A DNA stretch of 64,000 nucleotides, from contig VMTK01000018.1 in assembly GCA_013791585.1 (NCBI GenBank), positions 7,316 through 71,315 of the forward strand, written 5' to 3'. The position numbers and the translations under genes were made by a program. Positions 3,556-49,553 of this stretch are shown here, in pieces. Numbering within the stretch: position 1 is the first letter of the stretch; every line of letters begins with the position of its first letter. Origin of the DNA: Candidatus Falkowbacteria bacterium. GTDB taxonomy: Bacteria > Patescibacteriota > Patescibacteriia > Patescibacteriales > VMTK01. The notes beneath the pieces are model-generated. The model saw nothing but the letters and a program-made list of their open reading frames with translations. It searched no databases and was not told the DNA's origin.

Positions 3556-3626
3556 GCCACAGTCTCCTCGCAAGGGACTGTGGCGGACAAATGATCGTCG
3601 CAGTCCTCTGCGGAGAGACTGCGACG
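3556..3626. repeat. two adjacent GC-rich hairpins (GCCACAGTC..GACTGTGGC and CGTCGCAGTC..GACTGCGACG)
   Basis: The second matches the elements found in-frame in pth (49199-49269) and valS (24504-24533). Confidence 0.75.
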
Positions 3627-3707
3627 AGGCGGGGGCAATAATATTCAAAAATTTAGTATTCAAATGCGTATTTTTCTTTAATATTAGCAAAGTTGAATGT
3701 AATTTGC

Positions 3708-12320: not shown

Positions 12321-12520
12321 GTTGTTTGCTTCGCAAAGCCCGGCTGCAAATCGGGCGCATGCGAATTAATGTTTTTTGCTTCGCAAAGCCCGGCTACGAA
12401 TCGGGCACATGCGAATTAATGTTTTTTGCTTCGCAAAGCCCGGCTACGAATCGGGCACATGCGAATTAATGTTTTTTGCTTCGCAAAGCCCGGCTACGAA
12501 TCGGGCACATGCGAATTAGC
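12321..12520. repeat. 4 x 50-nt head-to-tail tandem repeat, each unit a nested hairpin
   Basis: Units start at 12321, 12371, 12421, 12471. TTCGCA AA GCCCGG CTACGAA TCGGGC ACA TGCGAA; unit 1 has loop CTGCAAA. The array fills the whole intergenic gap, from the NTase stop codon to the TrmB-like start codon. Confidence 0.95.
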
Positions 12521-13130
12521 TTATGTTTTCTAGAATATTTTTTCTTAATTTTGCCATTTGCTGATTATTTATTTTTAGCTCTTCAGCCTTGCTTGCCTTG
12601 GTTAAAATTTCTTCAATTTCATTATATAAATTAGTTATCTTATATTCTTGGCTTAATTTTTTGAAAAATTTCCAGTCAATATCAACAGCATCCAACATGC
12701 TGATTATGTCAATTTTATCTTTTTCTCCTTTGATTGAATTTTTACGGTCTTGATAGGCAAATAATTTCAGCAGTAAAAGAACCTCAATTTTAGGAACAAT
12801 AAAACCCTCTATGTTTTGCGCGCAGCCGCTTATCTTTTCCAATGGAAAGCCGATTTTTGAATAATGCGGCAGATAAATATCAATATCAAATTCGCCTAAT
12901 TTTATTTCATATTTTTTCAGCCGCTCATTTTTAATGACTTGGTATTTTTCTTTCAGCTTTCCAAGCTCATTATAATCAATAACTATGTCAATATCTTTTG
13001 ACTTCATTTTTTTTGTCCAAAGATAAACAGCCCAGCCGCCGATTAAAATAAAATTAAATTTTTCATTTAATTCCCGCAGGGCTTGATAGCTTTTATCTGT
13101 TATATTGTCATGCCAAAATTGTTTGGTCAT
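12516..13130 (-). CDS. nucleotidyltransferase-fold protein (AbiEii/MenT-like toxin candidate)
   Basis: FILIGGWAVYLW..KSKDIDIVI..FDIDIY (GG..., DxD pattern); 4-nt overlap with the upstream HTH gene. Confidence 0.55.
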   Translation of the reverse strand: MTKQFWHDNITDKSYQALRELNEKFNFILIGGWAVYLWTKKMKSKDIDIVIDYNELGKLKEKYQVIKNERLKKYEIKLGEFDIDIYLPHYSKIGFPLEKISGCAQNIEGFIVPKIEVLLLLKLFAYQDRKNSIKGEKDKIDIISMLDAVDIDWKFFKKLSQEYKITNLYNEIEEILTKASKAEELKINNQQMAKLRKNILENIS

Positions 13131-13708
13131 ATTTTAATTCTTTCTTTTAATTTTTTTAAAAATTCCTGCGCGCACCAGCTATCATCATTCCATAAGTCAA
13201 CGAAAATCTGCCCCAATGTTCCGCATTGGCCGTAATCCTTTAAATATTCATCCTGCTTTAAAACATAAAGATTTTCAGGGCCTTTTTTCGCTGGAAATCT
13301 TTTTTTGATTTCATCAATGTTGGAGCCGTAAATATAAACTTTGCCATAGTCAGACGGCGTTTCCTTGAATTTATATTTATAAGCGCTAAAACTCGCCCAG
13401 ATAATATCCGAGGGCATATTAGCTTCAATTTTTTCAATCGGCTCGCCAACAAAGGTTTTATAGATTATATCTTTACTAAGCTTCCTGTGCGTTCCCCATA
13501 AATAAAGCATTTTTTCAATATTTATCAGCTTAAAGCCGCTGCCGGATACTTGAATCGCTTTAATTTCACGGGGGATTTTTAAGGCGTTAAAGACAGTTGA
13601 TAAGGAAAAATTGAATTTTTTAGCCAGTTCCTGTTGTTGAAAGTTAAAATTGTTTTTTTCTATTGATTGGTAAAGCATTTCGCGCCAAATCACTTCTTTT
13701 TTGAACAT
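13127..13708 (-). CDS. HTH protein, AbiEi-like antitoxin candidate
   Basis: QQELAKKFNFSLSTVFNALK HTH; coupled to the NTase gene. Confidence 0.5.
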   Translation of the reverse strand: MFKKEVIWREMLYQSIEKNNFNFQQQELAKKFNFSLSTVFNALKIPREIKAIQVSGSGFKLINIEKMLYLWGTHRKLSKDIIYKTFVGEPIEKIEANMPSDIIWASFSAYKYKFKETPSDYGKVYIYGSNIDEIKKRFPAKKGPENLYVLKQDEYLKDYGQCGTLGQIFVDLWNDDSWCAQEFLKKLKERIKI

Positions 13709-14410: not shown

Positions 14411-14497
14411 GGATTTGAAACGCGGCGCTACAAATGCCGCCCATCCGAATAAACGGATTTGAAACGCGGCGCTACAAATGCCGCTCGTGCGAATAGA
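14411..14497 (+). repeat. two 44-nt-spaced units GGATTTGAAAC GCGGCG|CTACAAA|TGCCGC + (CCAT CCGAATA / TCGT GCGAATA)
   Basis: Hairpin-family copies 6 and 7 (stems 14422-14440 and 14466-14484). Confidence 0.85.
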
Positions 14498-15140: not shown

Positions 15141-15261
15141 GTTCTTTAAAACAAAATTTAAACTGAGGCAAAATGGAAATTAAATTTTTTAGTTTTTATT
15201 TTGTCTCAGTTTAGAGGCATAAACATTGAGCCCAGCCCGAGGGGAAATTCGGGCAAGGAGG
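15141..15261 (+). promoter_or_regulatory. 121-nt structured leader, copy 1 (ends in the SD AAGGAGG)
   Basis: 118/121 identical to 17024-17144; 15-bp stem 15160-15174/15198-15212; CCCGA..TCGGG hairpin 15236-15253 next to the SD. Confidence 0.8.
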
Positions 15262-15265
15262 AAAA

Positions 15266-16219
15266 ATGAATTTTTTTCAAATTGATCCGCGACCTGTCGG
15301 CCGTGGAGCGAATGAAAAGTTTTTTTCCGAGAACAGCAATGTCCTCGGAATTGAAGTAACTATTCCTGAGTGGGCATCTCGATGTTCATTTGGGAATATA
15401 GATCATCACGGCTCACAAGACACGGCGGAAACTCCGTCGGCTTGTGAACAAGCCATAAAGTATGGGACGCGATTTTTCGGTCGCCCCTGTTGCGGCGGTG
15501 GCTGGGATACTTATTCGTGTCCCAAATGTGACGGGGCTGATTGTCCTCCGGTTAAACCGGAGGCAATAGTCACTGTTCGCCCTGATGCGGATTCTGTGAC
15601 GGCAATGGCAGTTGTTTTTTCTTGCCTTTTAGGGGGTGGGCGAGAGATTGATCGCGACCTTGTAAAAATGGTCGGAACATTCGACCGACTTGGACATCAT
15701 GCCGAGCAACGCGATGACCGAGTTGTCGCCATTGCCCGAGTCTCCGCAGATTTCAAGCGTTCGCTCACAGAGCGAGTCGCTTGGGTGCAGGGATTGCTCG
15801 CTGGAAACAGTGAGCAGATGGCTGAGGTGGCTGAACTTGTTGCGGAACGCGATAAAGAATTTGCTGAGGCCAAAGTGGCGAGTGAGATTAATCTTGTCGC
15901 TAACGGTCGGATTGCTACGGTTGTTTCGTCGCATCGTTTTGCGACAAACTTGGGTTATGAGTATGCGACAGTTGTCGTAGCTCAAAACCCTGAAATGCCC
16001 GTGAATTTTCGTGACCCGTTCGCTGGTACATACAATAAATTTACGGTGTGTCGGTATAATTCGCACACACCGTGTAATTTACCGGCGGCACTTGCTGAGC
16101 TCCAAGTATTGGAGCCCGGCTGGGGCGGTCGAGGGGATATCTTCGGATCTCCTCAAGGAGTAAACTCTAAACTAACCCTCAACCAAGTGGTTGAGGTGGT
16201 TCAGAAACACCTCAAATAA
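15266..16219 (+). CDS. hypothetical protein with DHH/DHHA1-like motifs in non-canonical order and a Cys cluster
   Basis: GNIDHHG (aa 43-49), VRPDADS (aa 104-110), GWGGRGDIFGSPQG near the C-terminus; RPCCGGGWDTYSCPKCDGADC; strong SD; higher G+C than its surroundings. Confidence 0.7.
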   Translation: MNFFQIDPRPVGRGANEKFFSENSNVLGIEVTIPEWASRCSFGNIDHHGSQDTAETPSACEQAIKYGTRFFGRPCCGGGWDTYSCPKCDGADCPPVKPEAIVTVRPDADSVTAMAVVFSCLLGGGREIDRDLVKMVGTFDRLGHHAEQRDDRVVAIARVSADFKRSLTERVAWVQGLLAGNSEQMAEVAELVAERDKEFAEAKVASEINLVANGRIATVVSSHRFATNLGYEYATVVVAQNPEMPVNFRDPFAGTYNKFTVCRYNSHTPCNLPAALAELQVLEPGWGGRGDIFGSPQGVNSKLTLNQVVEVVQKHLK

Positions 16220-17023: not shown

Positions 17024-17144
17024 GTTCTTTAAAACAAAATTTAAACTGAGGCAAAACGGAAATTAAATTTTTTAGTTTTTATTTTGTCTCAATTTAGAGA
17101 CATAAACATTGAGCCCAGCCCGAGGGGAAATTCGGGCAAGGAGG
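17024..17144 (+). promoter_or_regulatory. 121-nt structured leader, copy 2
   Basis: 3 substitutions relative to 15141-15261; ends in AAGGAGG 6 nt before the ATG at 17151. Confidence 0.8.
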
Positions 17145-17150
17145 TGAAAA

Positions 17151-18255: not shown

Positions 18256-18328
18256 AGATTACTTCGTCCACCCGAGGTTTTGGGTTTAACAGCAAGCAAG
18301 GAGCGGATAAGCTTGCAAGGGTTTTAAA

Positions 18329-18358
18329 AAGGAGACATAATGGATTGTCTCCTTTTTT
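18329..18358 (+). terminator. rho-independent terminator AAGGAGACA..TGTCTCCTT + T-tract
   Basis: Read directly, after the last cassette gene. Confidence 0.7.
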
Positions 18359-18381
18359 ATGATTTTTAAGTTTATTTTTAT

Positions 18382-18415
18382 GAAAATTAAGCAAGGGATG
18401 GCGGTTAATAAAAAA
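18382..18415. repeat. 34-nt direct repeat, right copy
   Basis: GAAAATTAAGCAAGGGATGGCGGTTAATAAAAAA; 33/34 identical to 8994-9027. Confidence 0.8.
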
Positions 18416-18502
18416 GGGCTAAACCGCTCGCAGACGATTTAGCCCCTTTACCGTTTCAAATATCTGATCTGAAATCTGAAATCCGACATCAGAAATCCGA
18501 AA

Positions 18503-18613
18503 TGGTGGGCGACACAAGATTTGAACTTGCGACCTCCACGATGTCAACGTGGCGCTCTAATTTACTCCGGTACGCCCCGCTGGGCTACCGGAGCGAGCTG
18601 AGCTGCTTGTTGT
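18503..18613 (-). pseudogene. tRNA-Val(GAC)-like gene with a 37-nt hairpin inserted in the D-loop and no matching 5' acceptor strand
   Basis: 3' half is canonical (CCACG TTGACAT CGTGG AGGTC GCAAG TTCAAAT CTTGT GTCGCCC A CCA). D arm is GCTC AG[CTCGCTCCGGTAGCCCAGCGGGGCGTACCGGAGTAAA]TTA GAGC. The upstream 7 nt do not pair with GTCGCCC. Confidence 0.4.
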
Positions 18614-18618
18614 TTTTG

Positions 18619-18692
18619 TGGACGACACTGGACTCGAACCAGTGACCTCTTCGATGTCAACGAAGCGCTCTAACCAGCTGAGCTAGCCGTCC
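18619..18692 (-). tRNA. tRNA-Val (anticodon GAC)
   Basis: Hand-folded 74-nt cloverleaf: GGACGGC TA GCTC AGCTGGTTA GAGC G CTTCG TTGACAT CGAAG AGGTC ACTGG TTCGAGT CCAGT GTCGTCC A. Confidence 0.85.
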
Positions 18693-18774
18693 GTATCGGA
18701 TGTCAGATTTCGGATATCTGAAATCAGATTGTTAATTTATCCGAAATCCGAGATCTGAAATCCGATATCCGAAA

Positions 18775-18922
18775 TGGTGGGCATAGATGGATTTGAAGCT
18801 CCTCGGCGCTATCCTCGGTGCCGAAACTGGGAAACGGGGCGACATCCACGTTATAAGCGTGGCGCTCTAATTTACTCCGGTACGCCCCGCTGGGCTACCG
18901 GAGCGAGCTGAGCTAGCCGCCC
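18775..18922 (-). pseudogene. aberrant tRNA-like gene (UAU anticodon loop) with the same D-loop insertion, no foldable T arm, plus a stray tRNA 3' fragment
   Basis: GGGCGGC TA GCTC AG[37-nt insert]TTA GAGC G CCACG CTTATAA CGTGG AT GTCGCCC. GTCGCCC pairs with the 5' acceptor directly after the anticodon arm. The gene then ends ..TTCAAATCCATCTATGCCCACCA. Confidence 0.35.
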
Positions 18923-18939
18923 ATTTTTGAAATCTGAAA

Positions 18940-19015
18940 TGGTGCGCCCAGATGGACTTGAACCATCGACCCCCGGCTTATAAGGCCGGTGCTCTAACCA
19001 CTGAGCTATGGGCGC
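18940..19015 (-). tRNA. tRNA-Ile (anticodon UAU as encoded)
   Basis: Hand-folded 76-nt cloverleaf: GCGCCCA TA GCTC AGTGGTTA GAGC A CCGGC CTTATAA GCCGG GGGTC GATGG TTCAAGT CCATC TGGGCGC A CCA. Confidence 0.8.
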
Positions 19016-19188
19016 GGAAAATAAAAAAAGGATTTTTTATCCTTGTGCTATTTTAAATTTATCACTATATTTACTTTTTTTCAAGCCGTATAAAAATAAT
19101 AAAGTAATAAAATAACAAAATAAGATAATCAAGAGAGATGAAATTTTATTTTATTATTTTTTTTATTTCTATTATTTTGTTATTTTAA

Positions 19189-20397
19189 TTATATCGGCAG
19201 CTTGTTTAATTTTTCTTCTATGGAGCTGATGATTTGTTTTTCCGCTTCTTGAATCGGCGCGTCTAAGGAAGCGAATGCCAGATTTCTATCGCCTTGAGGG
19301 TTGTATTCTTTTATTATGTTTAATGAGTTTATATTTTTTATAGAATGGACTAGTACGTTGGTTTTAAGTTTTGGCGTTTCTCGGCCTTCTTGTTTTATTA
19401 TTTTTTCATAGATTATGATAATAATTTTCGCCTGCGGTATGTTAATAATCAGCTCGTCAATCACATCAGGCAGATCTTTTTCGCTGGAACATGTTTTTTT
19501 AAAATCCGCGGACGACAAAGCGGACCAGACCAATTTATTGTCCAAAGAGCTGGACAGCCGCGCCAAAACTCTGCCCCATAATTTCAGCACGCTTAACGGC
19601 CTGGAGCGGTAAAGATGATTAACGATTTCCTCGCGGCGCGCGCCCATGGAAATTAACTGCGAAGCGGCCAGCAAACAGGCAGGAGTTATATTTGAAGTTT
19701 TAAAGCTTTTGGTTTCGTAAATCATGCCGGCCAGCAGGCAGGTGGCGATATCCTCGTCCATTAAATCCCTGGAGCAGCTGTTGAAAAGAGAAAACAGGAT
19801 TTCTCCTGACGCGACCGCGGTAAGATCCGTATAATTGATTTGCCCGAAATCTTCATTGTTGGAATTGCGGTCAATATTAATGATAGGCATTTTGTAGAAA
19901 AATTCCGTGTCGTTGTCGTAGATTTTTCCCAGCGATTCCAGATCAGGCGAGCCGATAACAATAATCAAGTCATATTTAAATCCGCTTGAATGCGATGTTA
20001 TGTCTTCTTCGGTAAAAAATCCGTCCCGCGGAGAAACTATGAAATTCAGAGAATTCTCTTCCATTTTGTATTTTATCTGGCTTACTTTAGTGTCGGTTAT
20101 ATCCAGGGAAATAATGAATTTGCGCAGATTTTCCAAGGAATTTTTTATCTCGCCGAAGCCGGGAAGAAACGAGAATGTCCGTCCGTCATTGAATTTTTCA
20201 GCAACCAGGTCGGCATTTTTGCCCAGCTTTTTCAAAAAAAGATGCATAGCCAAAGCAGAAGCGACAGCATCGCCGTCCCATGTTTTCTTGAATGTTATTA
20301 AAATATTTTCAGCTTTTTTGATTTGTTCAAAAATCTGCTGTTCCTGGGTTAGCATAGAAAATAATGCGAATCTGCGAATTATATCCAAATACTCCAA
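19189..20397 (-). CDS. DHH/DHHA1-family phosphoesterase (NrnA-like) with a degenerate DHH motif
   Basis: KKTWDGDAVASALAM (motif I/II); IDRN in place of IDHH. The start may be the MLTQEQQ Met at 20355. Confidence 0.65.
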   Translation of the reverse strand: MEYLDIIRRFALFSMLTQEQQIFEQIKKAENILITFKKTWDGDAVASALAMHLFLKKLGKNADLVAEKFNDGRTFSFLPGFGEIKNSLENLRKFIISLDITDTKVSQIKYKMEENSLNFIVSPRDGFFTEEDITSHSSGFKYDLIIVIGSPDLESLGKIYDNDTEFFYKMPIINIDRNSNNEDFGQINYTDLTAVASGEILFSLFNSCSRDLMDEDIATCLLAGMIYETKSFKTSNITPACLLAASQLISMGARREEIVNHLYRSRPLSVLKLWGRVLARLSSSLDNKLVWSALSSADFKKTCSSEKDLPDVIDELIINIPQAKIIIIIYEKIIKQEGRETPKLKTNVLVHSIKNINSLNIIKEYNPQGDRNLAFASLDAPIQEAEKQIISSIEEKLNKLPI

Positions 20398-20618: not shown

Positions 20619-21197
20619 TTGTTAACCTTTATGTCTAATATCACTAAAAAAATATTAAAATTAGCGATTTCAAAAAAATCAGTTTTTACCGCTGATGAGT
20701 TGGCATTGGCATGGAAAATTACAAACAAGAATGTTTTGAGAGTGATGATCAATAGAAGCACTAAAAGCAATATTCTAAAAAAAATCAGGAGAGGAATTTA
20801 TTCGTTGAATGAAAAAGATGTTAATGTTTTTGAGTTAGCGTGCAAGCTTAAAAAAAGATCGTATATTAGTTTTGAAACAGTCCTAAGTAAAGCCGGAATA
20901 ATATTTCAATGGCAGGATAAAATATTTTTAGCCAGCAATAGGACATCGGAGATTAAAAATAAATATGGAAAATTTGTTTATAGAAAAATACCCGATAAAG
21001 CTCTGCATAGCAACGACGGGATAATTAGCAAAGGGAATTATTTTATTGCCACGGAAGAAAGGGCTTTGTGCGATAAAGTCTATAAAGACGGCATAAGTTA
21101 TTTTGACGATTTATCAGGAATAGACAGAAAGAAAATATTGCCAATAGCTAAATTATATAACAAAAGATTAGAGAAAGATATTAGAAAAATAATATGA
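20619..21197 (+). CDS. AbiEi-like type IV TA antitoxin
   Basis: N-terminal wHTH, 4-nt overlap with the AbiEii-like gene. Confidence 0.55.
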   Translation: MLTFMSNITKKILKLAISKKSVFTADELALAWKITNKNVLRVMINRSTKSNILKKIRRGIYSLNEKDVNVFELACKLKKRSYISFETVLSKAGIIFQWQDKIFLASNRTSEIKNKYGKFVYRKIPDKALHSNDGIISKGNYFIATEERALCDKVYKDGISYFDDLSGIDRKKILPIAKLYNKRLEKDIRKII

Positions 21198-21916
21198 AAA
21201 CAGATAAAGAAAAACATAAAAAAATAATGCTGAATATATTGGCTGATATTTCCAAAGATCCTGAATTGTCTGTTAATCTTGGCTTTAAAGGCGGAACTTG
21301 TTGTTATTTTATTTATGGCTTGGATAGATTTTCCGTAGATTTGGATTTTGATTTGCTGAATATGGAGGCAAAAGATTTAGTTATGAAAAAAATGAATGAG
21401 TTATTAAAAAAATATGGAACAGTTAAAAAGGAGGGTGGAGAATCGCGCATGAAATTAAAATATTCAGATGATAGCAGCGCCTTAAAGGTTGATATATCTT
21501 CAAGAGATGAATTAAATTATTTAAATAGCTATGAAATTAAAGATATTGTTTCAAGTGTTCCTTTAAATATATTAAAAAAGGAAGATATTTTTGCCAACAA
21601 GCTTGTGGCTGTTAAAGATAGATTTGAGAATAAATTAGCAAATAAAATAATAGCAAATAGGGATATTTATGATATTAATTTTTTCTTTAATAAAAATTGG
21701 GGGATTAATTATGAAATAATCGCGCTCAGAAGAAAAAAAGACGCGAAATCATACCTTAAAGAATTAATAGAATTTATAGAAAAAAAAGTTGATAATAAAA
21801 GAATTCTAGACGGAATCGGGGCTTTGGTTAGCGATGAAAAAAGAGAATGGGTAAAAAATGAATTAAAAAATGAGGTTATCAAGCAGTTAGCTATTCAAAT
21901 TAAGTCAATGGAGTAA
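21194..21916 (+). CDS. AbiEii/AbiGii-family nucleotidyltransferase toxin
   Basis: FKGGTCCYFIYGLDRFSVDLDFD matches the GGTAL..R.S.DIDF signature. Confidence 0.75.
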   Translation: MKTDKEKHKKIMLNILADISKDPELSVNLGFKGGTCCYFIYGLDRFSVDLDFDLLNMEAKDLVMKKMNELLKKYGTVKKEGGESRMKLKYSDDSSALKVDISSRDELNYLNSYEIKDIVSSVPLNILKKEDIFANKLVAVKDRFENKLANKIIANRDIYDINFFFNKNWGINYEIIALRRKKDAKSYLKELIEFIEKKVDNKRILDGIGALVSDEKREWVKNELKNEVIKQLAIQIKSME

Positions 21917-21926
21917 AATAAATTTT

Positions 21927-24803
21927 ATGATCAAAGAACTGCCAAAGGCGTATGAGCCGTCCAAATATGAAGACGGGATTTATAAAAAATGGGAAAAGTC
22001 CGGTTTTTTTAATCCTGATAATTTAGATTTGCCCAAAAACGCGCCAAGCTATACTATTATTTTGCCGCCGCCAAACATTACTGACAAACTGCATTTAGGG
22101 CATTCTTCCATGCTTGCCATAGAAGATTTGCTGATCCGCTATCATAGGATGAAAGGATTTAGAACACTTTGGCTGCCGGGCACGGATCACGCCGCAATTG
22201 CCACGCAGAATGTTGTTGAAAAAAAGCTATTAAAAGAAGAGGGGAAAACAAGGCAAGATTTGGGCAGGGAAAAATTCTTAGAAAAAGTCTTGGAATTCGT
22301 AAAAATTACCCAGTCTGTTATTTTGCGTCAAACCAGAAAAATGGGAGCTTCTCTGGATTGGTCGCGTGAAGCATTTACTTTGGATAAGCCCAGAGAAGAG
22401 GCAGTCAAGAAAATGTTTATTGATATGTATGAGGCAGGAGTGATTTACCGCGGAGAGAGGATTGTTAATTGGTGTCCGCGCTGCCATTCAACATTGGCTG
22501 ATGATGAAGTGGAATACAAAGACCAACAAGCGAAATTGTACACTTTTAAATATAGCAAGGACTTTCCTTTTACTATTGCCACAACTCGGCCGGAAACAAA
22601 GCTTGGCGATACGGCGGTTGCGGTGAATCCAAAAGACAAAAGGTACAAAAAATATATTGGCAAGGTTTATGAAGTGGATTTTGTCGGGATAAAATTAAAA
22701 CTGAAAATTATCGCTGATCGGCATGTTGAAATGGATTTTGGCACAGGCGCGCTGGGCGTGACGCCGGCGCATTCTATGGCTGATTGGCAGATGGCGGAAG
22801 CAAACGGTTTGGAAATTATAAAAGTAATCGGCGAGGACGGGAAAATTAATAATAACTTCAAAAAATATTCAGGCAAGACAGTTGAGGAAGCTCGGGAGAT
22901 GATTGTTAAAGAGTTAAGAAAAAATAATCTTTTGGAGAAAGAGGAAGAGATAGAAAATAATTTGTCTATTTGCTACAGGTGCAATACTCCCATAGAGCCG
23001 TTGCCGTCTAAGCAGTGGTTTGTAAGTGTTGATAAAAAATTAAAGCGGCTTGGAGGCGAAACACAAAAACACAAAAACACAAAAACACAAAAACACAAAT
23101 TAGATATTGAAGGCAAAACGCTTAAAGAAGCCGCCATAGAAGCTGTTAAATCCGGAAAGATTAAGTTTATTCCGGACAGGTTTGAAAAAAGATATATTGA
23201 TTGGATGGAAAATTTGCATGATTGGTGCATTTCAAGGCAGATTTGGTTTGGGCATAGGATTCCGGTATGGCATAGAACACGAAAACACGAAAACACGAAA
23301 ACACAAAAACACGAAAACACAAAAACACGAAAACACAAAAACACGAAAACACAAAAACACGAAATAGAGGAAATTTATGTCGGGATTGAACCGCCGAAAG
23401 GTGAAGGATGGGTTCAAGATCCGGATTCTTTAGATACTTGGTTTTCTTCTGGGATGTGGACTTTTTCTACATTGGGCTGGCCTGATAATTTTAAAAATGG
23501 GAAAAAGAAAGGGGATCTATCAAGGTTTCATCCTACTCAGGTTTTGGAAACCGGCTATGATATTCTTACGCTTTGGGTTTCTCGCATGATAATGATGTCT
23601 TTGTTCGCTTTGCGGGAAATACCTTTTGAAAATGTTTATCTGCACGGCATGGTTTTGGACGAGCATGGCAAGAAAATGAGCAAGTCAAAAGGCAATGGCA
23701 TTGATCCTGTTGATATGATTGATAAATTCGGCGCGGACGCGGCGCGCCTGTCTTTGCTTATAGGCAATACTCCGGGAAATGATTTGCGGTTAAGCGAAGA
23801 GAAAATCGCCGGGTTTAGGAATTTGGTTAATAAGATTTGGAATGTTTCGAGGTATGTAATTTCAGATTTCAGATTTCAGACCCCGCCCAGCTCCGCTGAC
23901 CGGGGCTGGGTTTCAGATTTCAGATTTAATCAAAAAAATTTAACAGTATCCGACAAATGGATTTTAGGCAAGATGGAAAATCTAATTAAGGAAACAGGCG
24001 ATGATCTGGATAATTACAGATTTTCGCAGGCAGGCGAAAGATTGCGGGAATTTACTTGGAATGATTTCGCGGATTGGTATTTGGAAGTCAGCAAGTTTGA
24101 AAAAAATAAAGAAAAAGGAAAAATACTATCGGTAATTTTAAATGATTTATTGAAATTATGGCATCCTTTTATTCCGTTTGTGACGGAAAAAATTTGGGAA
24201 GAGATGGGGAATGATAAATTTTTAATGATTGAAAAGTGGCCGGTAACCCCCCACCCCCAACCCCTCCCCCACTCCTGTTGTCGCGGGAGAGGGGAGATAG
24301 ATTTTGAATTGATAAAAGATGTTATCACAGCCATACGCAACGCGCGGGCGGAAAACAAGATTGAGCCGGCGCGGAAAATCAAGGCGGTAATTTACGGAGG
24401 CAAATCAGCGGATTTAATCAAGTCGCAGGAGTATTTGATTAAAAACATGCGGACAGGGATTAAAGAATTAGAAATTAAGGAAAAAGCAGATAAAATAAAG
24501 AATCGCCGCAGTCCTCTGCGAGAGGCTGCGGCGGGGCAGAGAATGTGGCATTGTCTTGTTCCTAAAGATGCCATTCATATTGCCGTTGCCGGCATTGAAA
24601 TTTATCTGATCGGCGCGGTTGATGAGGAAAAAGAAAAAATCAGAATTAAAAAAGAACGCGAGAATTTGGAAAAATTAATTATTATGGCAGAAAAAAAATT
24701 ATCCAATAAAGAGTTTGTGGAAAAAGCGCCGGAAAAAATCGTGAAACAGGAAAAAGAGAAATTGAAATTGCGAAAAGAGGAATTGAAAAAGCTAACCAAG
24801 TAA
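21927..24803 (+). CDS. valS: valyl-tRNA synthetase with multiple repeat-derived in-frame inserts
   Basis: PPPNITDKLHLGHS (HIGH), KMSKSKGN (KMSKS), C-terminal coiled coil; inserts at 23060-23099, 23277-23364, 23859-23928, 24245-24296, 24504-24533. Confidence 0.95.
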   Translation: MIKELPKAYEPSKYEDGIYKKWEKSGFFNPDNLDLPKNAPSYTIILPPPNITDKLHLGHSSMLAIEDLLIRYHRMKGFRTLWLPGTDHAAIATQNVVEKKLLKEEGKTRQDLGREKFLEKVLEFVKITQSVILRQTRKMGASLDWSREAFTLDKPREEAVKKMFIDMYEAGVIYRGERIVNWCPRCHSTLADDEVEYKDQQAKLYTFKYSKDFPFTIATTRPETKLGDTAVAVNPKDKRYKKYIGKVYEVDFVGIKLKLKIIADRHVEMDFGTGALGVTPAHSMADWQMAEANGLEIIKVIGEDGKINNNFKKYSGKTVEEAREMIVKELRKNNLLEKEEEIENNLSICYRCNTPIEPLPSKQWFVSVDKKLKRLGGETQKHKNTKTQKHKLDIEGKTLKEAAIEAVKSGKIKFIPDRFEKRYIDWMENLHDWCISRQIWFGHRIPVWHRTRKHENTKTQKHENTKTRKHKNTKTQKHEIEEIYVGIEPPKGEGWVQDPDSLDTWFSSGMWTFSTLGWPDNFKNGKKKGDLSRFHPTQVLETGYDILTLWVSRMIMMSLFALREIPFENVYLHGMVLDEHGKKMSKSKGNGIDPVDMIDKFGADAARLSLLIGNTPGNDLRLSEEKIAGFRNLVNKIWNVSRYVISDFRFQTPPSSADRGWVSDFRFNQKNLTVSDKWILGKMENLIKETGDDLDNYRFSQAGERLREFTWNDFADWYLEVSKFEKNKEKGKILSVILNDLLKLWHPFIPFVTEKIWEEMGNDKFLMIEKWPVTPHPQPLPHSCCRGRGEIDFELIKDVITAIRNARAENKIEPARKIKAVIYGGKSADLIKSQEYLIKNMRTGIKELEIKEKADKIKNRRSPLREAAAGQRMWHCLVPKDAIHIAVAGIEIYLIGAVDEEKEKIRIKKERENLEKLIIMAEKKLSNKEFVEKAPEKIVKQEKEKLKLRKEELKKLTK

Positions 24804-32561: not shown

Positions 32562-35500
32562 ATGAGCGGTTTAACGGAAAAATTAAATAAAGAACAATCG
32601 CAGGCCGTTACTCATAGAGAAGGGCCGCTTTTAATAGTGGCGGGCGCCGGGACAGGAAAAACCACTGTCATAACTCAGCGCATCGCTTATATCATAGAGC
32701 GGGGCTGGGCAAAATCAGATGAGATTTTGGCTTTAACTTTTACGGAAAAAGCAGCCGGCGAGATGGAGGAAAGAGTTGATCGGCTTCTGCCGATGGGTTA
32801 TCTGGATTTGTGGATTTCAACTTTTCACAGCTTTGGCGAACGGATTTTAAAAGAGCATGGGCTGGAGATCGGCTTGCCGGCTGATTTTAAATTGCTTAAT
32901 GAATTTGAGCAGTGGTCGCTGGTTAGAAAAAATTTGGATAAATTCAACTTGGATTATTACCGGCCAATGGGCAACCCGGCCAAGTTTATCCATGCTTTAA
33001 TCAAGCATTTTTCCCGCGCCAAAGATGAAGATATTTCGCCGGCGGATTACCTCCAATACGCGGAAGGGTTGAGGGAGAATTTGGACGGGATGTTGAGCGG
33101 AGCAATTACAAAAAACACAAAAACACAAAAACACAAAAACACAAAAACAAATATAGACGGAGAGAATAGTAAAGAAATTGCGGAGCAGGAAATTTTAAGG
33201 ATTAATGAGGTTGCGAACGCATATCATGTTTATCAGCAGTTATTATTGGACAACAGCGCTTTGGATTTTGGGGATTTGATAAATTATTCTTTGAAATTAT
33301 TCAGGGAGCGGCCGGCAGTGCTGGAAAAATACAGGAAGCAATTTAAATATATTTTGCTTGACGAATTTCAGGACACGAATTGGGCGCAGTATGAATTGAT
33401 AAAAATACTGGCTCAGCCAAGGAATAATTTGGCGGTTGTTGGAGACGATGATCAGAGCATTTATAAATTCCGCGGGGCGTCAATATCAAATATTCTGCAG
33501 TTTAAAAAAGATTTTCCAAAGTCCAAAGAGATTTTTTTGGTTAATAATTACCGCAACAAGCAGAATGTGCTGGATTTGTCTTATGAATTTATTAAATTAA
33601 ATAATCCAAATAGATTGGAATATCAGTTGAACACGAAAACACGAAAACACAAAAACACGGAAAACACGAAAACACTCGGCCTGCGGCCTCAAAACACAAA
33701 AACACTCAGCTTCGCCTCAAAACACGAAAACACGAAAACACGAAAACACGAAAACACTGAAACACATGAGTTAAATAAAAAGTTGTTGGCGCAGGGAAAG
33801 GGCGAGGGCGTGATTGAGGTGATTCAGGGAAGTGATTTGCAGGATGAGGTTGGCCGAGTGGTGGAAAAAATTGCCGATTTAAAAATTCAGAGCAAGAACT
33901 CCAGCTGGAATGATTTTGCCATATTGGTTCGGGCGAATGACAGCGCCAAGGATTTTTGCAACGCGCTGGAAATTGCCGGCTTGCCTTACCAATTTTTATC
34001 TTCCCGCGGGCTTTATGCCAAGCCGGTGATTATGGATTTGACGGCTTACTTGAAATTGCTTGACGACTATCATGAAAGCGCGGCTGTGTACAGAATTTTA
34101 AATTTGCCTGTTTTAGATTTTTCTTATCAGGAATTGGTTAATTTTAATTATATCGCCAGAAAAAAAGCTTGGTCGCTTTATACTGTTTTGCGCGATTCGC
34201 GCGGCAGATTAGGCAGCGCAATTCAGCAAAAGATTGATAGAATTTTATCTTTGATAGGCAAGCATACCGCTTTGGCAAGAGAGAAAAGCGTTAGTGAAAT
34301 TATTATAGCTTTTTTAAACGATAGCGGCTATTTAAAATATTTGACCTCACCCCCCGCCCCCTCTCCTTCGCATGTCCCTGGCTTGAACAGGGAAGAGGGG
34401 GAATATGAGCGGGAAAGCAGAGAGAACATGAATTTGCTTAACCAATTTATGAAAAGAATAAAAAAGTTTGAATCAGCAAGCGACGATAAAAGCGTTAAAG
34501 CGTTTTTGGCTGAACTGAATATGGAGATTGATTCCGGTGAGCAGGGCTCTTTGTCTCCGGATATTGAATCCGGTCCGGAAGCGATTAAGATTATGACAAT
34601 ACACGGATCTAAAGGCCTTGAATTCAAATATGTGTTTATCGCCAATATGGTTGACAAGCGGTTCCCGACAATAGAGCGTCAAGAGCAGATTTTGATTCCG
34701 GACGCTTTGATCAAGGAAATTCTGCCGGAAGGGGATATTCACCTTGAAGAAGAGCGCCGGCTTTTTTACGTGGCCATGACGCGGGCTAAAAATGACCTTT
34801 ATTTTTCCTGGGCGCCTGATTATGGAGGGGTTCGGAAAAAGAAACCTTCAAGGTTTTTGGCGGAATGCGGGTTGATTCACGAAAACACGAAAACACTAAA
34901 ACACTCGGCTTCGCCTCAAAACACGAAAACACTCGGCTTCGCCTCAAAACACGAAAACACAAAAACACGAAAACACGAAAACACGAAAACAGCAATATCA
35001 GATATTGGCGAGAGCGCAAAGCGCAAAGTACAAATTACTAAAACCGAAACGGAGATGCAAATTCCAAATTATTTTTCCTATACTCAGCTGGCGGCGTTTT
35101 CAAATTGTCCGTACCAATACCGCTTTGCGCATATTTTGCGGGTTCCGATGACAGGCAAGCCGGTTTTTTCATTCGGCAAAACCATGCACTCTGTTTTGCA
35201 GAAGACATTTGAGCTGGTTAATGAAAAGAAGGGATTGGGGCAGGGGGATTTGTTTTCCCTCACCCCCCAGCCCCCTCTCCCGGCTGGGAGAGGGGGAGGC
35301 GATTCCAGCTCCGCGCCTCGTCGCGCAGCCGCCTCTGCTAAACAGTATATGGGGAGTATTGAAAATAGTCCCCCCTCCTGTTTAGGAGGGGCAGGGGGAG
35401 GTATAAATATTAGCTTGGAAGAAATTTTGAAATTATACGAACAAAGCTGGATTGATGACTGGTATGAATCTGACAAGCAAAAGCAGGAATACAAAAAGAA

Positions 35501-48908: not shown

Positions 48909-49553
48909 CTACTTTGATTCAGCGATTATTTCCAAAATTAAATTATTAATAATTTCCATCTCTTCTTCGCTAAATTTTTGCAAGACAAATTTCTCTACAG
49001 GTATTTTATCAGCCGTTTCTGTTTTAATTCCGATTCTAATTCGTTTAAATTTTTTGGTTTTAAGATGATTGATAATTGACTGTACTCCGTTGTGCCCGGC
49101 GCTTCTTGAATCAGTTGAGATTTTATATTTGCCCAGCTCAATGTCAATATCATCGTGGATTACCGTGAGGATATCGGATAGATTAACCTTTTTCGCCTCG
49201 TCGCAGTCTCTCCGCAGAGGACTGCGACGGAACAGGAATCGCCGCAGTCCCCTTCGGGAGACTGCGGCGGAGCAGTGGGAGGGTAGTAATTTATAATAAG
49301 ACAAAATCGCTTGAACCGCTTGTCCGGAATTATTCATAAAAGTTTGCGGTTTGGCAAGAATTAATCTCCCGCTTTCTCCCTCTCCTTGCGAAGGAGAGGG
49401 TTGGGGCGAGGTAATATCAGCGTTGAATTTTTTATTAAATTTCCAAACTGAATTATATTTTTCAGCCAGAGCGTCAACTGCCATAAAACCGGCATTGTGG
49501 CGGGTGAGTTTGTATTTTTCGCCCGGGTTGCCCAGGCCGATTATTATTCGCAT
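48909..49553 (-). CDS. pth: peptidyl-tRNA hydrolase with two palindrome-derived inserts
   Basis: MRIIIGLGNPGEKYKLTRHNAGF, PQTFMNNSG, SAGHNGVQSI; inserts encoded at 49199-49269 and 49366-49411. Confidence 0.9.
   Translation of the reverse strand: MRIIIGLGNPGEKYKLTRHNAGFMAVDALAEKYNSVWKFNKKFNADITSPQPSPSQGEGESGRLILAKPQTFMNNSGQAVQAILSYYKLLPSHCSAAVSRRGLRRFLFRRSPLRRDCDEAKKVNLSDILTVIHDDIDIELGKYKISTDSRSAGHNGVQSIINHLKTKKFKRIRIGIKTETADKIPVEKFVLQKFSEEEMEIINNLILEIIAESK

Follow-up and report, generated by a model that had tools for sequence, protein, structure and literature searches.

Aberrant tRNA copies beside the tRNA-Ile and tRNA-Val genes of a Candidatus Parcubacteria genome as probable remnants of earlier tRNA genes

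Two aberrant tRNA copies, A1 and A2, accompany the tRNA-Ile(UAU) and tRNA-Val(GAC) genes that a Candidatus Parcubacteria (CPR) genome has immediately downstream of its DHH phosphoesterase gene. They are probably non-functional remnants of earlier tRNA-Val and tRNA-Ile genes at a hotspot of recombination or integration. An earlier note on this DNA had offered two readings, pseudogenes that repeated integration and recombination at tRNA 3' ends had left behind, or tRNAs that need an unusual D-loop excision. The first one stands for the pseudogene scars, the variable copies, the mosaic constitution of A2 and the strain-variable cargo at the border of the cluster, but not for the confinement to 3' ends, since the D-arm, anticodon loop and T-arm contain breaks as well.

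The window, which is the complete stretch of 64,000 nucleotides that was analysed, carries the cluster on its minus strand in the order tRNA-Ile, A2, repeat spacer, tRNA-Val and A1 (Table 1). The two canonical genes described previously are called by both ARAGORN and Rfam, with the correction that they lie on the minus strand, and ARAGORN makes no other tRNA call in the whole 64 kb. The tRNA finders, including ARAGORN in its intron mode, thus accept only the canonical pair and reject A1 and A2. Each aberrant copy has the anticodon loop of the canonical gene immediately upstream: A2, with UAU, comes after Ile(UAU) and A1, with GAC, after Val(GAC), a partial copy adjoining an intact gene of the same anticodon. 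With a promoter-like site on one side and a terminator-like hairpin on the other, the pieces are probably transcribed together with the working tRNAs, and their transcripts would be unable to mature into tRNAs. A hairpin homologous to the terminator-like one is found 3' of the dead Val copy in the related locus L034 and directly 3' of the working Val gene in L008.

Table 1. Features of the tRNA cluster and of a related repeat (positions in the window).
Feature	Position	Strand	Basis or remark
Promoter-like TTGAAA-17-TAAATT, 5' of tRNA-Ile	19056..19084	-	consensus scan; motif kept in relatives
Working tRNA-Ile(UAU), allele Ile_c1	18940..19015	-	ARAGORN; Rfam 78.4 bits; CCA encoded; L008 copy identical
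A2, mosaic tRNA pseudogene, UAU anticodon loop	18775..18922	-	Rfam 16.1 bits; no ARAGORN call
A2 5' end GGGCGGCTAGCTCAG, 5' acceptor strand and D-stem of old tRNA-Val allele	18908..18922	-	15 nt identical to 5' end of L011 working tRNA-Val
Hairpin insert in D-loop, A2 copy	18871..18907 (stem-loop proper 18875-18903)	-	exact repeat; perfect 8-bp stem by hairpin scan
A2 middle GAGCGCCACGCTTATAACGTGGATGTCG, D-stem 3' strand, anticodon arm and variable loop of Ile allele	18840..18867	-	28/28 identical to L007 and L009 working tRNA-Ile
43-nt non-tRNA module (core TTCGGCACCGAGGA; also given as TTCGGCNCCRAGG), in place of 5' T-stem strand	18798..18840	-	no stable fold
A2 3' end, T-loop, 3' T-stem, 3' acceptor TATGCCC and ACCA, third allele	18775..18797	-	TATGCCC pairs with GGGCATA of L007 orphan 5' fragment F1
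Spacer of ATNTCRG heptamers, long imperfect inverted repeat	18693..18774	-	L008 identical; L034 shorter version
Working tRNA-Val(GAC)	about 18619..18692 (ARAGORN 18618-18692)	-	Rfam 66 bits; no encoded CCA; L008 copy identical
A1, old tRNA-Val without 5' acceptor strand, hairpin in D-loop	18503..18604	-	Rfam 28.5 bits; absent from L008
Hairpin insert in D-loop, A1 copy	18561..18597 (stem-loop proper 18565-18593)	-	exact repeat; hairpin scan; folding
Terminator-like hairpin and T-run, end of tRNA transcription unit past A1	18410..18446	-	read from sequence
Two tandem 44-nt tRNA-scrap-like repeats (GGGCGGC..TAGCGCCG..TTCAAATCC)	14411..14495	-	inside strain-specific block 13.8-18.4 kb

A1 is an old Val gene minus its 5' acceptor strand. 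All that had been reported for this copy is seen in it: the anticodon arm and the T arm are intact, the 3' acceptor with its CCA is present (GTCGCCC-ACCA) and there is no 5' partner for that acceptor, CAAAAACAACAAGC standing before the D-stem instead. ARAGORN does not call A1 as a tRNA even with the intron mode on, and its score with Rfam family RF00005, which falls short of the gathering score of 29 bits, depends on a GGGCG borrowed from the hairpin as acceptor strand. The 5' end of A2 pairs with the GTCGCCC at the A1 3' end. Joined in silico to A1, it gives a perfect cloverleaf (-53 kcal/mol, z = -5.0) from whose D-loop the hairpin protrudes; ARAGORN calls the join as tRNA-Val(GAC) after removal of the 33-nt insert. 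The perfect tRNA-Val formed by this join indicates that the two pieces belong to one old gene around the current Val gene.

A2 is a four-part fusion of an old-Val 5' end, an old-Ile middle, the 43-nt module and the T-loop-to-CCA end of another Ile allele. Compared at the sequence level, it appears as a mosaic of at least three tRNA alleles and a non-tRNA module. The organization described for it in the earlier note was recovered, with GGGCGGC at its start, GTCGCCC directly after the anticodon arm and an unrelated T-loop, acceptor and CCA sequence (TTCAAATCCATCTATGCCCACCA) at its end; its start was moved to 18922, 6 nt further 5' than in the reading from 18916. The terminal 23 nt on the 3' side are the partner of the L007 orphan 5' fragment F1. 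Within A2 the acceptor strands GGGCGGC and TATGCCC pair at 5/7 positions and there is no T-stem, 43 unrelated nucleotides occupying the place of its 5' strand. ARAGORN leaves A2 uncalled in intron mode and also after removal of the hairpin, and the Rfam score of 16.1 bits is below the gathering score of 29. The pairing of GGGCGGC with GTCGCCC inside A2 looks coincidental because GTCGCCCCGTTT is part of the module and is present in L034 and L007 without a preceding GGGCGGC. A tRNA without T-arm closed by these two strands is excluded on the same ground, the modules of both relatives having GTCGCCCCGTTT without that 5' strand. A2 changes faster than the DNA around it: between the window and L008 there are 4/148 differences in A2 and 0/249 in the four neighbouring segments of tRNAs and spacers.

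The two aberrant copies share an exact block of 57 nt (18548-18604 and 18858-18914), confirmed as previously described and not extendable. It lies within a wider repeat of 76 nt that is 93% identical, with five differences, four falling within the anticodon loop and a fifth within the variable loop. The stable 37-nt hairpin noted to split the D arm is also verified, with two exact copies in the window, both in tRNA scraps, versus 0 expected from shuffled sequences, and a folding energy of -23.9 kcal/mol (z = -5.2). Its predicted fold has stems of 8 bp and 4 bp with one 1-nt bulge, and a 5 x 6 nt internal loop separates the stem from the D-stem. The D-loop of A1 and A2 reads AGCTCG-hairpin-TTA, with G18 replaced, and its G18-G19 pair is lost, CG being found in the window copies and TG in L007. 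The five hairpin copies known are all identical. There is no target-site duplication at the junctions of the insert and no window copy outside A1 and A2. The 29-mer of the hairpin has zero matches in 185,579 species-representative genomes and zero in IMG/VR. Its 19-mer core has 16 matches in JGI metagenomes, of which 15 are chance matches to high-GC coding sequence and one is an L007-type locus. The hairpin 5' arm was rejected as a 5' end derived from a tRNA of phage or other origin, as all seven viral matches are to high-GC coding sequence and none to a tRNA. From this distribution the hairpin appears confined to one near-species clade. It is probably a recent local insertion and gives no evidence for a new kind of tRNA processing.

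The 43-nt module occurs at the same tRNA position in the dead Ile copy of L034 and in the dead Val copies of L013 and L040. Folded alone it is not stable (z = +0.98), and with no conserved or covarying structure across five lineages it was rejected as a structured RNA. A pattern search for it in species-representative genomes returned the L013 contig only. Searches of viral contigs with the module and with the repeats at 14.4 kb gave no match save one chance coding one, L036. Those repeats lie about 0.6 kb from the far end of the strain-specific block, which is absent from L008, and have TAGCGCCG and TTCAAATCC in common with the module end of A2.

Comparison of the cluster in relatives of the same Parcubacteria clade, as the earlier note had proposed, reveals variable wreckage at the same place and supports the pseudogene alternative. 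Relatedness of the loci is given here as identity of the DHH protein alone. The simplest state of the locus is DHH followed by tRNA-Ile(UAU) and tRNA-Val(GAC); L009/L010 and L042/L043 have Ile and Val only. In L008 (DHH 94% identical) Ile is followed by A2, the spacer and Val, without A1. In L007 and L021, whose DHH protein is that of L008, a hairpin-bearing orphan 5' fragment is followed by an entire tRNA-Ile of a different allele and then by an orphan 3' fragment; in L007 the TATGCCC of the 3' fragment pairs with the GGGCATA of the 5' fragment, an old Ile gene being split around a new one. L034 (84%) has the four-module layout of the window with truncated Ile and Val copies that lack the hairpin: its dead Ile begins at the 3' strand of the D-stem and its truncated dead Val has a normal D-loop and a palindrome replacing the anticodon arm. 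L038 shows the nesting unambiguously: a third tRNA-Val gene lies inside two successive older ones that are split in the anticodon loop and whose joined halves are called tRNA-Val. One of the inserts is placed exactly at position 37/38 and has long paired ends, and the other shows terminal inverted repeats of 14 nt together with a duplicated TTGA; an independent assembly shows the arrangement with identity over 480 nt. L040 features an intact Val gene, a 1.7-kb island bounded by repeats of 12/12 and 20/22 nt, and a displaced 3' half with the same kind of module at the same position. A partial copy beside an intact gene of the same anticodon is thus found also in L034, L013, L040 and L038. The presence, truncation point and content of the aberrant copies differ between strains and lineages. 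Nearly every lineage has a different tRNA-Val allele at this locus, next to the remains of the preceding one.

The DNA downstream of Val is also different in every lineage. Between the cluster and HSP20 the window has about 9.5 kb of accessory genes, against about 0.1-0.7 kb between Val and HSP20 in most relatives, and the cargo differs among the window, L008, L011 and L040. Island proteins encoded in the window, in L011 and in L040 show no relation to one another, and none of them matches an integrase or transposase family. Pfam and PHROGs searches of the tested ORFs of the window, up to about 40 kb, and of the L009, L011 and L040 flanks detected no integrase, transposase or other recombinase. 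The displaced 3' ends of the three CCA-bearing units that might mark island borders have no other copy in the window at up to 3 mismatches. The dead copies of the window abut the live genes, and the block at 13.8-18.4 kb holds scrap-like repeats only, near its far end.

The relatives show that in this clade incoming DNA has struck the Ile and Val genes again and again and has supplied or restored a functional copy, with pieces of the previous copy staying beside it. The module would be an attachment-site arm or another insertion scar. A lineage-specific palindrome inserted into the D-loop of a copy that was dead or dying may have given the 29-nt hairpin (33 nt including the TAAA tail). The exact block of 57 nt may have arisen by duplication or by gene conversion between copies 310 nt apart, which its tRNA-conserved flanks (AGCTCAG and TAGAGCGCC) would assist. 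The 57-nt overlap of the old-Val pieces is unlike a simple insertion and would require a Campbell-type event or gene conversion. In several lineages a dead copy abuts a live one without an island, a situation that needs a later deletion or a non-classical mechanism. It is possible, though unlikely, that in this clade small self-inserting cassettes carrying a complete replacement tRNA land in the resident gene of the same anticodon, which would be destroyed while the insert became indispensable, a destroy-and-replace process amounting to an addiction-like turnover of single-copy tRNAs. The observations behind such cassettes are the old-Val pieces around Val in the window, the old-Ile halves around Ile in L007 and the two-deep nesting in L038; the D-loop hairpin would then be the emptied pair of cassette ends.

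The flawless cloverleaf of the A2-A1 join, with its hairpin as an additional arm, and the presence of the same insert at the same D-loop point of three tRNA bodies (GGGCGGC, GGGCATA and the acceptor-less A1) could also mean that genes with the hairpin are, or recently were, working tRNAs. Some activity would excise the hairpin or it would be tolerated as an extra arm, A1 and A2 being products of a recent break-up, and their source might be a mobile element whose tRNAs all bear the arm. This is very improbable. No intact tRNA bearing the hairpin was found at any searched locus or collection, canonical Val and Ile genes are always alongside, and the G18 position is C in the window and T in L007, as expected without constraint. 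The five identical hairpin copies offer no covariation in support of a selected structure. The D-loop excision put forward in the earlier note is not supported: removal of the hairpin in silico yields no tRNA from A1 or A2, neither a bulge-helix-bulge (BHB) motif nor a group I match is present, and the lost G18-G19 pair and the hairpin-free homologous dead copies of L034 oppose it further. For a BHB intron the fold lacks the two opposite-strand 3-nt bulges and the 4-bp helix at the exon-intron junctions. Bacteria are not known to have the EndA splicing endonuclease, and no match to this family was found among the tested ORFs of the 64-kb window. Non-canonical BHB introns of Archaea, which also occupy D-loop positions (PMC4090602, PMC3241643), resemble the insert by their short length, non-anticodon position and occurrence in more than one tRNA body; short introns moving between archaeal tRNAs are known at least as PMC10714607 cites Fujishima 2010. 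Unlike them, the hairpin has no succession of 3-nt bulge, 4-bp helix and 3-nt bulge, and its excision would not restore A1 or A2. A group I or II intron is excluded for an insert of 29-37 nt in a D-loop, with no match to any Rfam intron family in 18300-19300 at E values of up to 10. Group I introns of tRNA genes are much longer, usually measuring about 200 nt or more. Those of Patescibacteria are self-splicing ribozymes placed in the anticodon loop (PMC13011429); they share with the present case the phylum and the property of making standard finders miss tRNA genes, in contrast to a 29-nt D-loop hairpin without an intron-model match in the interval searched.

The window and L034 have the order Ile, dead Ile, Val, dead Val in common, the dead Val retains its T-arm and 3' end well and the spacer does not vary between strains, so that the scraps may have some role. 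A1 and A2 could be functional tRNA-like RNAs, either decoys or processing and stability elements, that are co-transcribed and kept for that role. Their position between promoter-like and terminator-like signals, the anticodon loop that each copy has in common with the preceding gene and the four-module layout of L034 agree with this, and a gene for a tRNA-related AbiEii nucleotidyltransferase toxin lies 1.6 kb away, a link that is speculation. Such a role is nevertheless very improbable: A1 is dispensable, being absent from L008, each lineage has its own truncation points and inserts, no fold of the module is conserved and the matching anticodon loops are explained by descent from the Val and Ile genes. 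Variation also affects the AbiE pair, which L007, L013 and L040 lack. Least probable of all is an artefact of metagenome assembly in which the repeat of 57-76 nt led to a misjoining of strain variants. The sequence comes from a k141 metagenome contig of the MEGAHIT style, and five other assemblies with an identical DHH gene break 282-304 nt past DHH, inside the repeat. However, k = 141 exceeds the 76-nt repeat, and two real copies would cause breaks at the repeat, while the L008 sample, without A1, assembles straight through. A2 and the hairpin recur in independent assemblies of other samples (L008, L007, L021), and a direct repeat in two copies permits no other linear order save loss of the middle.

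The interpretation of A1 and A2 as remnants has precedents. Displaced tRNA fragments left by integration of genomic islands and prophages are collected in the Islander database (PMC4383910), and their mis-annotation is treated in PMC9897764. The resemblance to such fragments lies in a partial copy adjoining an intact gene of the same anticodon, strain-variable cargo beside it, the classical order tRNA, island and displaced 3' half in L040, and fragment scores below the gene-finder threshold. The present locus departs from them by the failure to find an integrase, orphan 5' as well as 3' pieces, breaks in the D-arm, anticodon loop and T-arm, dead copies that often abut the live gene, and extra inserts in the fragments (the hairpin and the 43-nt module). 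The tRNA-Thr locus of Caldiarchaeum subterraneum in a natural archaeal population, where a tRNA gene is disrupted by a mobile element (PMC3293823), shares population heterogeneity at one locus, an orphan 5' fragment adjoining an entire gene of a different allele, short additional sequences in the tRNA and integration or recombination of mobile DNA as the proposed cause. In that archaeon the inserts are introns cut by the splicing endonuclease and a 1.8-kb element encoding a recombinase was identified, whereas the present host is a bacterium, neither a splicing motif nor a recombinase is seen and the copies that were hit appear dead. A literature search for nested or split tRNA genes in bacteria gave archaeal and eukaryotic cases only. 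REP- and MITE-like elements and the Rickettsia palindromic elements are small palindromic insertions that land inside genes. The D-loop hairpin is similarly a GC-rich imperfect palindrome of about 30 nt inside a gene of a small AT-rich genome; it differs in matching no palindrome family of the window, in having, within the 64 kb, no copy outside tRNA scraps and in the lack of a target-site duplication. Other GC palindromes of the same genome are found in frame inside the ValRS gene.

A1 and A2 are pseudogene scars of a known kind with unusual detail. In annotation they should be labelled tRNA pseudogene fragments and not unusual tRNAs, decoding by Val(GAC) and Ile(UAU) in this genome depending on the two canonical genes. 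CPR genomes are tiny and most of their tRNAs are single-copy, yet the locus points to a fast, horizontally driven turnover of essential RNA genes and to some machinery that targets essential tRNA genes. Should the nested tRNA-in-tRNA inserts of the relatives prove to be a genuine class of mobile cassettes, they would represent a new way for selfish DNA to become unlosable.

The cluster of tRNA sequences lies between the DHH-family phosphoesterase gene, itself accompanied by the AbiEi/AbiEii pair and the valyl-tRNA synthetase (ValRS) gene, and a terminator-like hairpin. Two canonical genes, for tRNA-Ile(UAU) and tRNA-Val(GAC), alternate with two aberrant copies, A2 and A1. The canonical genes are the only ones called by ARAGORN in the whole 64 kb, and Rfam called the same two with 78 (Ile) and 66 (Val) bits. 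Under permissive Rfam settings A1 attained 28.5 bits (gathering score 29), and this only with GGGCG from inside its D-loop hairpin as a substitute acceptor strand, while A2 scored 16.1 bits. The block common to A1 and A2 is exactly 57 nt (18548-18604 = 18858-18914) and is not extendable; the 37-nt insert is found exactly twice in the window, with 0 occurrences expected by chance, and folds into a hairpin of 8 bp plus 4 bp (-23.9 kcal/mol, z = -5.2). The gene calls, the exact block, the insert count and the fold therefore confirm on all material points the description in the earlier note of two normal genes beside two rearranged copies sharing a hairpin.

Features of the tRNA cluster, its surroundings and related elements
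Feature	Position	Strand	Remark
AbiEi/AbiEii toxin-antitoxin pair	20619-21916		between ValRS and DHH; absent from L007, L013, L040
DHH-family phosphoesterase	19189-20397	minus	flanking gene
Promoter-like TTGAAA-17-TAAATT, then small hairpin and T-run	19023-19084	minus	ends ~8 nt 5' of tRNA-Ile
tRNA-Ile(UAU)	19015-18940	minus	first in sense direction
Spacer, 17 nt	between tRNA-Ile(UAU) and A2	minus	
A2, aberrant copy	18922-18775	minus	
Spacer, 82 nt	between A2 and tRNA-Val	minus	ATNTCRG heptamers, long imperfect inverted repeat
tRNA-Val(GAC)	18692-18619	minus	
Spacer, 14 nt	between tRNA-Val and A1	minus	
A1, aberrant copy	18604-18503	minus	
Further heptamers, then terminator-like hairpin and T-run	18446-18410 (hairpin/T-run)	minus	3' of A1
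DUF6036 nucleotidyltransferase and 193-aa partner	12516-13708		downstream of tRNA cluster; common to L008
GC-rich palindromes, two families	3556-3627, 24504-24533, 49199-49269; also 35271-35296, 40593-40615, 49378-49400		
Nested Val genes	L038:1579-1958 (GCA_974770705.1)		identical in L039

Six relatives (L009, L011, L013, L034, L038 and L040) have the same layout of promoter, hairpin and T-run 5' of tRNA-Ile; the stem has changed on both sides. The small hairpin could act in the leader, as a terminator or attenuator, or it could terminate DHH.

The window is part of a metagenome contig of 81.8 kb. It was compared with loci of relatives (L numbers), taken as the DNA downstream of DHH homologues with 94% to 70% protein identity; the closest homologues are named by their sources as Candidatus Parcubacteria, Patescibacteria or Falkowbacteria. 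The order ValRS, DHH, tRNA-Ile(UAU), tRNA-Val(GAC) is kept wherever the contig reaches, ValRS being absent beside DHH in L033 only. A few lineages have other genes (AbiE pair, 207-aa ORF) between ValRS and DHH, and an HSP20 gene follows tRNA-Val in most relatives. In L009/L010 and L042/L043 the two tRNAs are 4-21 nt apart with nothing else. This bare pair is the simplest and probably the ancestral state of the locus, as judged by parsimony with DHH identity, not a tree, as proxy for relatedness.

Outside these four loci each lineage has its own, different tRNA wreckage. L008 (94%) has Ile, A2 with 4 substitutions, an identical spacer and Val followed directly by the terminator, with no A1. L007, whose DHH protein is the same as that of L008, and the independent metagenome contig L021 start with an orphan 5' piece (GGGCATA-TA-GCTC-AG-[hairpin]-TAGAGCGCCTGCTTA) that stops in the anticodon loop. 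Next comes an entire tRNA-Ile, of a different allele and identical to that of L009, and the series ends with an orphan 3' piece that extends from the anticodon stem as far as TATGCCC-ACCA. Since GGGCATA and TATGCCC are complementary, the orphans are halves of one old Ile around a newer one. L034 (84%) keeps the order Ile, dead Ile, heptamer spacer, Val, dead Val, terminator. Its dead Ile starts only at the D-stem 3' strand; in its dead Val the 5' acceptor strand is missing, as in A1, the D-loop is normal (AATTGGTTA) and a GC palindrome replaces the anticodon arm.

In L013 (73%) and L040 (70%) the live Val is followed by the 3' half of a dead one. A 1.7-kb island with 2 ORFs separates the two in L040, its ends marked by repeats (12/12 and 20/22 nt), which is the textbook layout; in L011 (74%) 3.3 kb separate Ile from Val. 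An N run between identical ~60-nt copies of the tRNA-Ile 3' part (L013:5420-5530) looks like a scaffolding artefact of that assembly. L038 (72%), identical over 480 nt to the separate assembly L039, has the 5' halves of 2 different old tRNA-Val genes, both of which stop in the anticodon loop, then an intact third Val, and after it the two 3' halves in reverse order. The joined inner halves are called tRNA-Val(GAC) by ARAGORN, as are the outer halves only after 2 GC hairpins, both within the T-loop of the 3' half, are cut out. Folding of the inner pair plus its insert gives one tRNA inside the anticodon loop of a second (-81.9 kcal/mol, z = -6.2). The inner insert lies exactly at position 37/38 and has ~17-nt paired ends, and the outer one is bounded by inverted ends of 14 nt (CCCCGTTAGATAAC) and accompanied by a TTGA duplication.

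On sequence comparison A2 is a mosaic. The initial 15 nt (GGGCGGCTAGCTCAG) are identical to those of the working tRNA-Val in L011 at its 5' end, and the 28 nt of the middle part (GAGCGCCACGCTTATAACGTGGATGTCG) to a stretch of the working tRNA-Ile in L007 and L009. In place of the 5' T-stem strand there are then 43 nt of other sequence, and the terminal 23 nt form the counterpart of the orphan 5' piece in L007. A1 is an old tRNA-Val that lacks the 5' acceptor strand; its 3' strand GTCGCCC is complementary to the GGGCGGC now heading A2. Joining the A2 5' end to A1 in silico yields a perfect cloverleaf (-53 kcal/mol, z = -5.0), called tRNA-Val(GAC) by ARAGORN once 33 nt (CTCCGG...CCGGAGTAAA) are removed. 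An old Val is therefore present in the window as two pieces, one on either side of the current Val as in L038, and the upstream piece has also become joined to what is left of an old Ile. Both pieces contain the 57-nt block, an overlap that plain insertion would not give; it may have arisen by a Campbell-type event, or by gene conversion between copies at a distance of 310 nt. Identity of A1 and A2 past the block, along the anticodon-stem 3' strand, is unremarkable because working Ile and Val alleles of the clade share the CCACG/CGTGG stem; the anticodon loop itself is that of Val in A1 and of Ile in A2.

The 43-nt stretch of A2 (module) has relatives with the core TTCGGCNCCRAGG at the same place, between variable loop and T-loop, in three other loci: L034, within the dead Ile, and L013 and L040, within the dead Val. 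It has no stable fold (z = +0.98), and a five-lineage alignment gave a weak consensus structure with no favourable covariation. Short direct repeats are present (CCGAGGA twice; CCCCGTTT twice in L008). We infer a DNA-level sequence, either an attachment-site arm or another insertion scar. The module starts with the GTCGCCC that the earlier note had paired with GGGCGGC inside A2, a pairing that looks coincidental because GTCGCCC also occurs in L034 and L007 where there is no GGGCGGC.

The hairpin is carried only by the window, L008 and L007/L021 (5/5 copies identical). No match was found in 185,579 species-representative genomes or in IMG/VR, and the L007-type locus is its only occurrence in JGI metagenomes. 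It is absent from the whole L034 locus, whose homologous dead copies lack it, so the hairpin entered after the split from L034. No target-site duplication is present, its 5' arm searched as a tRNA 5' end gave chance matches only, and it falls outside all GC-palindrome families seen in the window. The alternative in the earlier note, that A1 and A2 are tRNAs awaiting an unusual D-loop excision, is unsupported: the predicted fold does not match a bulge-helix-bulge motif, no intron family was matched in the region even at E up to 10, and ARAGORN made no call for A1, A2, A2 without hairpin, or the reconstructed old Ile of L007. The hairpin also breaks the D-loop, turning the universal G18-G19 into CG in the window and TG in L007.

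Compared with L008, the window has 0/249 differences in its two canonical tRNAs plus both spacers, 4/148 in A2 and 13/173 in the upstream intergenic region. By our arithmetic the chance that all 4 differences fall in A2 is ~2% if they are random over the 397 cluster positions, which, with such small numbers, agrees with relaxed constraint or patchy conversion. The HSP20 gene, ~0.1-0.7 kb from Val in most relatives, is 9.5 kb away in the window, behind accessory genes. This DNA includes a ~4.6-kb block (13.8-18.4 kb) of higher G+C (40-42%) that is absent from L008. The ORFs of the block (317, 119 and 252 aa) had no match among Pfam or PHROG families, and two of them are preceded by copies of a direct repeat of 126 nt (15141-15266 and 17024-17149, 96%). 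Near its far end (14411-14495) 2 tandem 44-nt repeats with GGGCGGC, TAGCGCCG and TTCAAATCC resemble collapsed tRNA scraps and the module 3' end. Island proteins of different lineages are mutually unrelated. No integrase or transposase family was detected in the tested ORFs (window ~1-40 kb; flanks of L009, L011 and L040), and the absent recombinase is the main gap in an integration model.

The genome takes up GC-rich palindromes inside genes; among several families, two are CGYCGCAGTC...GACTGCGRCG and CCCTCTCC...GGAGAGGG. Two palindromes are in-frame parts of the ValRS gene and vary from strain to strain; one copy is near the C-terminus, where L007 has a larger nested version. Within the ValRS CDS (21927-24803), positions 23855-23930 carry in-frame (ATTTCAG)n heptamers around a GC-rich core (translation SDFRFQTPPSSADRGWVSDFRF); L007 has 5 heptamers without core there, and L011 another heptamer and GC core at the same codon position. 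The window's ValRS heptamer also builds the tRNA spacers. AAACACA-type repeats at 23030-23090 and ~23260-23330, encoding KHKNTKTQKH-like peptide repeats, are present in the window and L007 and absent from L011 and L013, and the 1153-aa ValRS of L009 (L009:1-3054) has a Ser_hydrolase / alpha-beta hydrolase domain inside the synthetase. Short elements ending CCCCGTTA(A/G)ATA / TAT(C/T)TAACGGGG (L011:8504-8603, L011:126-260, L013:5245-5265), one with a TTTA duplication just upstream of tRNA-Val, share their end motif with the outer L038 insert, which suggests a MITE-like family in the relatives; none was seen near the window tRNAs.

Displaced tRNA fragments are standard markers of island ends (PMC4383910), and their misannotation as tRNAs is documented (PMC9897764). 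Unlike such fragments, this locus has orphan 5' pieces besides 3' pieces, whole replacement genes within old ones, extra inserts in dead copies and no visible recombinase. The nearest published parallel comes from an archaeal population: one tRNA locus there combines an orphan 5' fragment with short additional inserts and an element that carries a recombinase (PMC3293823). The group I introns known from the anticodon loops of patescibacterial tRNAs (PMC13011429) are different from the window's inserts. It is likely that A1 and A2 are tRNA pseudogene fragments at a hotspot, a known type of feature with unusual local detail. More tentatively, and on balance doubtfully, L038 and L007 above all hint that in this clade small full-tRNA cassettes may enter the resident gene and take its place.
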